From the NCBI RefSeq assembly GCF_013122565.1, contig NZ_CP053258.1: DNA of 64,000 bases, one strand, 5' to 3'. Shown piece after piece: positions 29,536-32,744 of the stretch. Origin of the DNA: Escherichia coli. Its GTDB lineage: Bacteria; Pseudomonadota; Gammaproteobacteria; Enterobacterales; Enterobacteriaceae. Below the pieces are notes generated by a model. It saw nothing but the letters and a program-made list of their open reading frames with translations, was not told the DNA's origin and did not search any database. A program made the translations under genes and the position numbers. Positions within the stretch are counted from its first letter, which is position 1; each line of letters begins with the position of its first letter.

Positions 29536-29700
29536 GCATAATACGCTTTCCCGCCACAGAGTCAAGCATTTATTTTTGCTTTCTCTGCCGAAGTTCTCAG
29601 GAGAACCCCGCTGACCCGGCGGCGTGTTTGCCGTTGTTCCGTGTCAGTGGTGGCGCATTATAGGGAGTTATTCCGGCCTGACAAGAGGAAATTTAAAATA
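29536..29700 (-). promoter_or_regulatory. rRNA operon tandem promoters P1 and P2 with UP element
   Basis: P2 -35 TTGACT / -10 TATTATG near 29536-29565; P1 -35 TTGTCA / -10 TATAAT near 29657-29684; A/T-rich UP region just upstream. Confidence 0.8.
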
Positions 29701-29729: not shown

Positions 29730-30587
29730 TCAGCCTAAAACTGCCAGTTTTTCGAGCGTTCCGAAGCCATAACGTTGTAAAACGGGCATTAATTGTTCAG
29801 CTTCTGGCGTCATTGCCATACAAAAGGCAATATTCGCATCGGCAGATTTTGCATCCGGAGCTTCATGTTCTAACAGCCAGGCCGTTCTGCGAGCAATCGC
29901 TGCGCCAGAATCCACCAGCCGGGTTCCCTCTGGCAGCACCTGTAACAGTTCTTCTTGTAGTAGAGGGAAATGGGTGCAACCCAATACAACGGTATCTGGC
30001 GGCTCTTTCATTCTTAACCACGGGCGTAGGATACGTTTTAGTGCATCCAGAGAAACATCTTCGCCATGCAGCTTCGCTTCAGCCAACTCAACCATCTCTG
30101 CCGAGCCCAGCATTTCTATCTGGCATTCATTAGCGAAACGCGCGATCAGCTCATGAGTATAAGAACGTTTAACTGTTCCGCGGGTTGCCAGTAATCCGAC
30201 AATGCCATTTGCCGTCAGACGTGCAGCAGGTTTAATCGCCGGCACGACACCAACAACCGGGAAGTCGAACTTTTCGCGTAATGCAGGAAGTGAAACGGTA
30301 CTGGCAGTGTTGCAAGCGACCACTGCCAGCGCAAGGGGATAACGTTCTTGCACCGCGGTGACAATTGCCACCACTCGCTCAACAATAAACGCTTCGCTTT
30401 TTTCGCCATACGGGAAAGCGACGTTATCGAAAGCATAAATGTAATGGAGATCCGGTAAGAGATGCCGGATCTCGTCATAGACCGACAACCCACCGACGCC
30501 GGAGTCAAACACCAGCACGGTGGGACGTGGTTCAGAAGGTGTAGCTGCCAGACAAGGTGTATTCCCGTCCTGCAGTTTGGTAGCCAT
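29730..30587 (-). CDS. murI: glutamate racemase MurI
   Basis: 285 aa from [17 protein letters not shown]...; ORF track extends 4 codons upstream. Confidence 0.95.
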
Positions 30588-32376
30588 AGACTGTCTCATA
30601 ATCTTTGTCGAACAGGTTGGCTATTTTACCACGAACTGTCAGGTGAGAGGTGACCGGATACGCAACCGCAAGATCCCACAAGCTCACACCGCCCATTTTA
30701 ACGGTTTGATAAGGATAAGATGAGTAATCCTTATCATAGCGAGTGCCTAAATACTGATAAGTAATACCCCAGTCGAAGTCATACAACTGCCAGTCGAGCT
30801 GGTATTTCACCTGCTGTTTAGCACGGCGTAACAACGGCGTGTCGGTAATTGCATTGCGCGCATCGACATAATCATAACTCACAGTATGCGTCAGTGGTCC
30901 GGTATCAAAATTGGCGGTCGCCTCGACGCCCTTAATCCGCGCTTTCCCTTCGTTGTAATATTTCAGGGTGTGATCATCATAATCGATCAAGTCACTGACA
31001 TCGTTACGATATCCGGAAATACGCCAGTTCACCCCAGCGGTTAAGCCTTCAAACGCGCCTTCCCACTGTTTGCTTTTCTCCGGGTCCAGATTCGGATTTC
31101 CGTAGAAGCCATACAGTTGCCCCAGATTTGGTGCCTTATAAGATGTCCCGTAGGAAGCAATGAAGCGATAACCTTCGATGAATTCCCAACCGGCGCTGGT
31201 TTGCCAGGTTCCATGACGACCAAACTGTGAGTTATCGTCGCTGCGTGCTGCGCCTTCAAAGGTAAAATCGCCGACTTGTTGCAGCCCGGTCAGATAGATG
31301 CCGGTATTACGTTGATCATATCCATCCTCAACATAACCTGTACCCGGCGTCGTAGTCTGTTTCTGCCAGTCGACACCCGCACCAATACTACCGTGACCAA
31401 CGATGACATTGTTTGCCCACTGGACGGTGTATTGCTTCATCTCATCGAGCGTCGCCGACGAATCATAACGACCATAATGGGGATCGTAGTTGTAATCTTT
31501 GCTATGGCTATAGCTGGTAATGAATTGTGATTTAATCAGTTCGCCGTTATAGCGCAGCCCGGCGTCCCAACTTTGGCTATAGAGTTTACGGGTATCGAGC
31601 AACGGTGAACCGGGAGAATAATACGCGTCATAATTGGTACGGTTATCATAGCCATAGCCGCGCACAAAGCCGCTCCAGGCATCAGTAAAGTTATGCTCCA
31701 GCGCGCCATAAAGCGTTTTACTTAAAAAACCATCGTTATCTGTCTGCGCTTGCGTTCCGGTATTACCATAGGCAACAACATCATAACCATGAGTATGGGC
31801 ATAATCGCCCAACAACGTTACTCGTGTCTTATCCCCCAGTTGTTGCTGTGTAGAGACATCATAGTTCTGGTAACTATTGCTTCCCCACCCTGCTGAAATT
31901 TCCGTTCCGGGTTCATCGCGCGTCGTGATGATATTCACCACCCCGCCTATTGCATCGGAACCATAAACGGCGGAGCGCGGCCCACGGATATATTCAACAC
32001 GCTGGACAAGCGCAATAGGGAACTGGCTAAGGTCGGCAGAACCACTCACCCCCGCCAGATTCAGGCGTACGCCATCAATTAACACCAACACATGACTGGC
32101 ATTTGTACCGCGAATAAAAATAGATGAGAGCTGACCTGAACCGCCGTTTTGGGTGATATCGACGCCCGGAAGACGGCGCAGCACATCATTGACCGAGGTC
32201 GACTGCCAGCGGTCGATATCCTGACGCGTCACAACGGTGGTTGGTGCAAGCACAGTGCTGCGCGGCTGTTCAAAACGGTTAGCAGTAACGACGAGAGTAT
32301 CCGGGCTGGTATCCTGTGCCCAAGCGGAAAAGGCTGTGACAGAACACGCCGTCAGCAGCGAAGCTTTTTTAATCAT
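30532..32376 (-). CDS. btuB: TonB-dependent vitamin B12 outer-membrane receptor BtuB
   Basis: 614 aa from [20 protein letters not shown] (signal peptide), TonB box [10 protein letters not shown]-terminal ...SGSYTF; overlaps murI start by about 56 nt. Confidence 0.96.
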
Positions 32377-32620
32377 TGTAAAGCATCCACAATAGAAGAA
32401 GGATGCCGCAGGTTTCATCAATATTACGCGATGATGAGAACCAGATGCGACGTTGGCCGGCAGGTCTTCGGGCTTGGAGGGGTATCTAAGATACTAAGAG
32501 ATGATGACTTCCCACCGAATGGCAGTGTCCGCATAACGCAATCATCGCACCTTTCCTTACCGCTGCGCGTCAGCTCCAGATTCGCACTGGATTCCCTATT
32601 AACTCACAGGACCGGCAAGT
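32377..32620 (-). promoter_or_regulatory. cobalamin (B12) riboswitch in btuB leader
   Basis: About 240-nt leader containing B12-box (reverse complement AGCCCGAAGACCTGCCGGCC at 32455-32474) and GCCGGTCCTGTGAGTTAATAGGGAATCCAGTGCGAATCTGGAGCTGACGCGCAGCGGTAAGG. Confidence 0.85.
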
Positions 32621-32744
32621 GGATGCTACAGGTTGTAACAAGTTACTGTCCAGACATAGCTCACAAATAGGAATTCATCAAGATCTGGACATCTGATGAG
32701 CAATCCCTACAATCGCCGCGTACTTTAATTTTTCAGGATACATC

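Follow-up and report, generated by a model that had tools for sequence, protein, structure and literature searches.

A probable murI promoter inside btuB at the 56-nt btuB-murI overlap of Escherichia coli

The 64,000-nt stretch of E. coli DNA analysed here (the window) carries btuB, which encodes the TonB-dependent vitamin B12 receptor, and murI, which encodes glutamate racemase, as overlapping neighbours on the minus strand. We consider it likely that murI is expressed mostly from an extended -10 promoter of its own inside btuB, that MurI synthesis begins by ordinary initiation at the ATG at 30587, and that the btuB mRNA is a largely separate molecule. A sigma-70 extended -10 promoter, TGGTAAAAT, with no -35 element and lying within the btuB coding sequence, would give rise to a murI mRNA with its 5' end 28 nt upstream of the ATG and a weak GAG ribosome-binding match. 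Because murI would thus have its own mRNA with a short leader, its translation is expected to be ordinary initiation on that leader, and not to be coupled to translation of btuB. The riboswitch-controlled btuB mRNA would cross the overlap and end about 144 nt into murI, past a conserved hairpin. What both genes have in common would then be DNA and about 172 nt of transcript, and for the most part no functional message.

The shared 56 nt and the start of murI

Overlaps between same-strand neighbours in bacteria are mostly of 1 or 4 nt, and one of 56 nt is unusual. In the window, btuB occupies 30532..32376 on the minus strand (614 codons, with the ATG at 32376 and the stop codon TGA at 30534..30532), and murI occupies 29730..30587 on the same strand (285 codons plus the stop, with the ATG at 30587..30585 and the stop ending at 29730). 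Their overlap on the minus strand, 30532..30587, holds the last 18 residues of BtuB and its stop codon, together with residues 1-18 and part of residue 19 of MurI, the murI frame being +1 relative to btuB. The sequence-only reading, which left the strand of both genes unstated, had put the murI start about 56 nt within the 3' end of btuB, and the open reading frames and the sequence give these coordinates exactly. The gene identities it assumed agree with the Pfam matches (Plug, E = 6e-30, and TonB_dep_Rec_b-barrel, E = 9e-45, for BtuB; Asp_Glu_race for MurI), with RefSeq, and with the crystallised E. coli glutamate racemase (PDB 2jfn_A), which aligns to all 285 residues of MurI from its own residue 1 (MATK...). 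Compared with the K-12 protein, three C-terminal positions of MurI differ.

The 56-nt overlap of btuB and murI is already known for E. coli, as had been claimed, and the present locus is that known junction. In near-identical E. coli genomes, the RefSeq annotation, against which a check had been proposed, likewise gives 56 nt and names the upstream gene btuB, and the same holds for K-12 MG1655 (btuB 4163639..4165483, murI 4165428..4166285; b3966/b3967). The window and K-12 MG1655 have a common gene order of trmA, riboswitch, btuB, murI and rrnB, the sequence around the murI start is identical, and nothing substantive differs there. Of the 5,426 complete E. coli genomes searched, 5,425 have a match to the 3.2-kb region, the best at 99.4% identity. 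RiboReport lists btuB/murI among “well-characterized overlapping ORFs ... which share 56 bp”.

Beyond E. coli, the comparison set consisted of 80 species-representative genomes with MurI 86-98% identical, all of them Enterobacteriaceae, the only family that the scan of the genome collection yielded. With the sequences aligned at the ATG, the murI start codon is invariant (80/80), and the btuB stop ends exactly 56 nt past it in 79 of the 80. The remaining genome, a Citrobacter amalonaticus (L067), was rejected as a natural case of no overlap, as it differs from a close relative by a single extra G in a homopolymer run; its frameshift is most likely an assembly error. In Proteus (Morganellaceae; MurI 67% identical) we find the order trmA-btuB-murI and again an overlap of exactly 56 nt. 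More distant murI homologues, at about 50% identity, are without a TonB-dependent receptor upstream and are uninformative on the origin of the overlap. Within E. coli, 466 genomes fall below 95% identity across the 3.2-kb region, and none does so over the 61 nt that surround the start of murI. To judge from these alignments, the overlap is neither an annotation artefact nor a chance feature.

The same nucleotides serve the two proteins differently. Read in the btuB frame, the overlap specifies the final beta-strand of BtuB up to its terminal Phe. On the MurI side, alignments to homologues at 56% identity or less start at about residue 20-24 of the E. coli protein, on residues 3-14 of the homologues themselves, which would place the overlap wholly within an N-terminal extension that typical glutamate racemases are without and that appears specific to Enterobacterales. 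A literature search on the role of this extension found no text. Among Enterobacteriaceae, 4 of 18 BtuB columns in the overlap vary, compared with 13 of 19 in MurI, and between E. coli and Proteus the identical residues number 13/18 for BtuB and 8/19 for MurI. With its frame the better conserved, BtuB looks like the senior partner, and the MurI extension seems to evolve within limits set by BtuB. The synonymous codon entropy of btuB is about 0.13 bit in the overlap versus about 1.28 outside it, and such near-absence of synonymous variation is the expected signature of double coding, because each third position of btuB is a second position of murI.

A downstream in-frame start of murI, which would abolish the overlap, had been named as the observation that would overturn this picture. 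The candidates are two GTG codons, at +69 and +75 relative to the ATG (window 30518 and 30512; position 0 is 30587), and the idea draws on the conserved racemase core, which starts at about residue 22-24, and on a TraDIS preprint whose authors speculate that a truncated MurI made from an alternative start works when a transposon sits in the overlap. We think that it can hardly be correct. None of the 80 species genomes has an in-frame ATG, GTG or TTG between 0 and +69; the codon at +69 is GTG in 59 of 81 sequences and a GTN codon other than GTG in the other 22; and neither GTG pairs with the 16S rRNA tail (dG of at least 0). In addition, codon periodicity in the murI frame is present at +56..+68, with an entropy of 0.94 bit at third positions versus 0.18 at first and second positions. 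This stretch lies directly past the btuB stop and upstream of the first GTG, which requires ribosomes to have started in the murI frame at position 0 or further upstream. The freezing of btuB third positions, i.e., murI second positions, across the overlap and the invariance of the ATG also speak against a downstream start, as does the calling of both open reading frames as translated by ribosome-profiling tools (RiboReport).

An in-frame ATG also exists upstream, at 30597..30599 on the minus strand, 12 nt before the annotated start. Its use in E. coli, alone or together with the ATG at 30587, would extend MurI by MRQS to 289 residues and the overlap to 68 nt. This codon is the first in-frame ATG and the start of the mechanically called open reading frame, it lies inside the transcript that begins at -28, 16 nt from the 5' end, and it is present in K-12; an identical 61-mer spanning it occurs in 4696 of 5424 complete E. 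coli genomes (87%), and the ATG is found in Proteus as well. It is missing, however, from 78 of the 80 species genomes, its carriers being L004 and the odd locus L067, and it stems from a synonymous TAC-to-TAT change in btuB at a codon that is TAC in 77 of 79 aligned sequences. The ribosome-binding match is also weaker, at -0.9 kcal/mol compared with -2.7 kcal/mol for the Shine-Dalgarno duplex of the ATG at 30587, and both RefSeq and the crystallised protein start at the latter, which is a choice and not a measurement. We therefore regard use of the upstream codon as improbable, and it may be a minor start in E. coli. The ATG at 30587 remains our preferred start.

A probable promoter for murI within btuB

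The putative promoter of murI is the extended -10 element TGGTAAAAT (TGgTAAAAT) at 30623..30631 on the minus strand, inside btuB and 36-44 nt upstream of the murI ATG, with the TG at 30631-30630 and the hexamer TAAAAT at 30628..30623. No match to a -35 element was found at 16-18 nt from the hexamer. The element is invariant in 80 sequences, including at third codon positions of btuB, and its counterpart in Proteus is TGGTAGAAT. It belongs to a longer block of low synonymous variation in btuB, 30588..30636 on the minus strand (-49..-1 relative to the murI ATG), which comprises the promoter and the 28-nt leader with the weak GAG ribosome-binding match at 30597..30595. The block starts sharply at -49 with the invariant GTTCGTGGTAAAAT, which holds TGgTAAAAT. 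Its mean codon entropy over 15 eligible codons is 0.25 bit, about fivefold lower than the value of about 1.28 elsewhere in btuB; the minimum among 208 background windows of the gene is 0.97, and none of 100,000 permutations reached the value of the block. Between E. coli and Proteus, the sequence from -48 to +7 is nearly identical, while the overlap downstream has diverged. RNA structure was considered as a cause of this conservation and rejected, the region around the murI start being unstructured (z = -0.19).

Published start-site data, in which the sequence-only reading had suggested looking for an internal murI promoter, contain a matching start: two independent K-12 data sets place a murI transcription start at -28. 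In SMRT-Cappable-seq of cells in rich medium (Yan et al. 2018; PMC6131387, Supplementary Data 1), a transcript running from 4165400 to 4166543 is represented by 121 reads and covers only murI (b3967). In the 454-based mapping of Mendoza-Vargas et al. 2009 (PMC2760140, Table S1), murI has a start at -28 with a frequency of 2, a sigma-70 -10 box given as “tcgtGGTAAAATagcc”, and an entry of yes under “-10 ext (TG)”. Transferred by collinearity, K-12 position 4165400 corresponds to 30615 on the window's minus strand, 28 nt upstream of the ATG and 8 nt past the hexamer, and the K-12 sequence in this region is identical to the window. A second 5' end in the 454 data lies 178 nt inside murI (about 30409), with the -10-like sequence GATAACGT and a frequency of 2.

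The element has the features of an extended -10 sigma-70 promoter, namely a TG one base before a hexamer close to TATAAT and a triphosphate 5' end 6-8 nt downstream, the latter in data from K-12 and not from this strain. Like other promoters of this class (TGn-TATAAT) that lie within an upstream gene, it combines the TG with a hexamer matching at five of six positions, is without a -35 element, and has its start 8 nt after the hexamer. It departs from the usual form in that transcription starts at a C and the hexamer is one base further upstream than textbook spacing; its activity in the present strain is putative. The bare pattern TGNTANAAT is not enriched in the window, with 5 occurrences found and 6.2 expected, and since the pattern is not rare, the case for the promoter rests on conservation and experiment. 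A search of the literature found no reporter or mutational study of the murI promoter. We infer that this promoter supplies most of the MurI in the cell.

A consensus promoter scan, which is blind to extended -10 promoters, returned 6 candidates versus 4.2 expected, one of them inside the 3' part of btuB. This -35/-10 candidate at 30760..30733 (9 of 12 matches) was rejected, as it is at chance level and the btuB third positions under its -10 vary freely from species to species.

Could the conserved block reflect constraint on btuB only, through its protein, codon choice or mRNA, with the -28 ends being minor or processed species? The BtuB residues encoded there are almost invariant, the pattern TGNTANAAT occurs readily by chance, and the 454 set has just 2 reads, all of which fit such an account, and the conserved C-terminal strands of BtuB could contribute to the conservation of the block. 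The freezing of synonymous positions, however, is left unexplained by the protein, and equally conserved btuB codons elsewhere vary freely. The AT-rich Proteus retains the codons GCC AAC CTG in the block. Moreover, Cappable-seq selects for triphosphate 5' ends, and 121 reads were obtained at the site. For these reasons, we consider constraint on btuB only to be very improbable as the whole cause, and an own promoter for murI accounts better for both the sequence and the mapped ends.

The btuB message and its cobalamin riboswitch

The leader of btuB contains a cobalamin riboswitch at 32442..32631 on the minus strand (Rfam RF00174, 87 bits, E = 3e-21), which is also a RefSeq feature in two of the E. 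coli genomes (L001 and L002); the K-12 start site of btuB, 4163398, corresponds to about 32617 in the window. In addition, the first 20 codons of btuB (32317..32376) show low synonymous variation, 0.72 bit versus about 1.28, which would fit a riboswitch expression platform or a translation initiation region that extends into the coding sequence.

Transcripts from the btuB promoter appear to stop soon after they enter murI. In the M9 sample of the SMRT-Cappable-seq study (PMC6131387), the btuB transcript runs from 4163398 to a termination site at 4165572 and is represented by 21 reads, of which 10 end at the site and 4 within 50 bp downstream. By collinearity, this 3' end lies at 30443 on the window's minus strand, or +144 in murI, and none of the 21 reads from the btuB promoter is listed as passing it, at low depth and in M9 alone. 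Four nucleotides before this end, at 30447..30473 on the minus strand (+114..+140), murI contains a hairpin, GAGAUCCGG...CCGGAUCUC, with a folding energy of -15.2 kcal/mol and z = -4.7. The hairpin is conserved among Enterobacteriaceae: across 70 distinct sequences, 94% of cells are paired, and two pairs have changed on both sides. A proper U-tract is missing, and transcripts of murI continue past the hairpin; a true terminator should stop murI transcripts too. Its role is thus a matter of candidates: terminator, exonuclease block or coincidence. A search for independent 3'-end data gave no hits.

The sequence-only reading had suggested that the riboswitch could in principle influence murI. 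The riboswitch itself is borne out by the RF00174 match upstream of btuB, and an influence on murI is made less likely by the finding that no btuB read passes +144, in one condition. The reads suggest that the btuB and murI messages are largely separate, small as their number is (21, one condition). With the btuB message apparently ending soon after it enters murI, the riboswitch probably affects murI little. As in other transcription units of its class, the cobalamin riboswitch precedes btuB; the second gene, murI, differs from that class in that it appears to escape through an internal promoter, with the btuB mRNA ending inside it. A literature search for measurements of murI with and without B12 found none.

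Coupling to btuB had been offered, next to an internal promoter, as a way to start murI. The promoter has gained support from the -28 start in two data sets and from the conserved extended -10 element; for coupling we found no positive support. Classical translational coupling goes with a stop/start geometry of 1-4 nt. In coupled pairs (ATGA or TGATG, 4 or 1 nt), the genes are likewise same-strand neighbours with overlapping frames, whereas the overlap of btuB and murI is 56 nt, murI has a transcription start of its own, and nothing indicates a dependence on btuB translation. The murI ATG precedes the btuB stop by 56 nt, and not by a few nucleotides.

The fullest form of this idea is that murI is expressed mainly from a polycistronic btuB-murI mRNA, is translated by coupling to btuB, and shares its control by the B12 riboswitch. 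Several features invite it: the genes are on the same strand with overlapping frames and no intergenic gap, ribosomes translating btuB must cross the murI ATG, and the pair is called an operon in PMC11841063, where a 300-fold rise of the “btuB-murI transcript” in promoter and RBS mutants is reported, apparently measured on btuB. On the other hand, the stop is far from the geometry of coupled pairs, the start region holds no stable structure for ribosomes to open, murI has its own start at -28, and none of the 21 btuB-promoter reads extends beyond +144. Genetic data point in the same direction, as disruptions of btuB are viable though murI is essential. In the TraDIS preprint, cells survive the loss of the first ~1000 bp of btuB, and transposon insertions in btuB are the most strongly enriched hit in a phage selection. 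Insertions in the overlap region are about tenfold biased to one orientation in the same preprint, as is expected if a transposon inserted downstream of the promoter has to provide outward transcription itself. A coupled, riboswitch-controlled murI is thus rather unlikely, and initiation on a separate murI mRNA remains the reading that we prefer.

A more far-reaching version of that reading is held only tentatively, and we would sooner doubt it than rely on it. Here, btuB and murI would not be an operon but a pair of interleaved transcription units with about 172 nt in common (-28 to +144), the hairpin would set the 3' end of btuB, and promoter and hairpin together would insulate murI, as an essential gene of cell-wall synthesis, from B12 control. 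This architecture, with its overlap of exactly 56 nt, would have been kept since before the split of Enterobacteriaceae and Morganellaceae.

Implications and the surrounding region

The overlap explains why a clean deletion of btuB harms an essential gene. It also means that transposon screens can score murI falsely where btuB is the real target (TraDIS preprint). For engineering of btuB, whether for phage or colicin resistance or for B12 uptake, the presence inside btuB of a conserved murI promoter, seemingly largely uncoupled from the riboswitch, makes it advisable to keep at least the last ~110 nt of the gene. The label “btuB-murI operon” calls for caution. Three points were not found in the searched literature, namely that the 56 nt are fixed from Escherichia to Proteus, that conservation is higher in the block of promoter and leader than where both frames are coding, and that the upstream ATG is specific to the E. 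coli lineage. These are refinements of a known case and not a new kind; the useful one concerns murI, with a deeply conserved promoter of its own within btuB and, seemingly, little coupling to the riboswitch.

Several observations on individual loci concern btuB and its neighbourhood more generally. BtuB diverges far more between species than MurI does (loci L045, L067 and L016). For example, BtuB of E. coli and of C. amalonaticus L067 is 52% identical over residues 1-580 and 85% over the last 55, and MurI of the same pair is about 91% identical. In Intestinirhabdus alba (L041), btuB has a premature TAA at -616, where relatives have CAA, and is otherwise full-length and 84.5% identical; either the gene became a pseudogene recently or the receptor for B12, phage and colicins was lost in this strain only, and we set the locus aside as uninformative on long-term constraint. 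A locus from Logan SRR14318305 (L092; MurI about 51% identical) has the order trmA, rmuC, a TPR protein and murI, with no btuB between trmA and murI, which hints that the linkage of trmA and murI is possibly older than the overlap with btuB. An enterobacterial btuB-murI locus is also carried by CACSKA010000012.1 (L040), labelled Chryseobacterium sp. 18061. It has the same MurI match statistics and locus length as L031, the locus of Citrobacter sp. 18056 in that study, and is identical to it over the compared 55-nt stretch, and it looks like a mislabelled or contaminated assembly.

At the other end of murI, the transcript that starts at -28 extends to about 29472 (K-12 4166543), 116 nt before the 5' end of mature 16S rRNA (rrsB 4166659). 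We take RNase III to release 17S pre-rRNA by cutting at -115, near this 3' end. If so, transcription of murI would continue across the rrnB promoters into the leader of the rRNA, and processing of the rRNA, in place of a terminator specific to murI, would generate the transcript end. Synonymous variation is also low in murI codons 261-280 (about 29748..29807), at 0.88 bit versus about 1.4 in the middle of the gene. Just downstream of these codons, the promoter scan placed an rrnB P1-like promoter at 29684..29657, and the low variation may stem from an overlap between the murI coding sequence and upstream activating sites belonging to the rRNA promoter.
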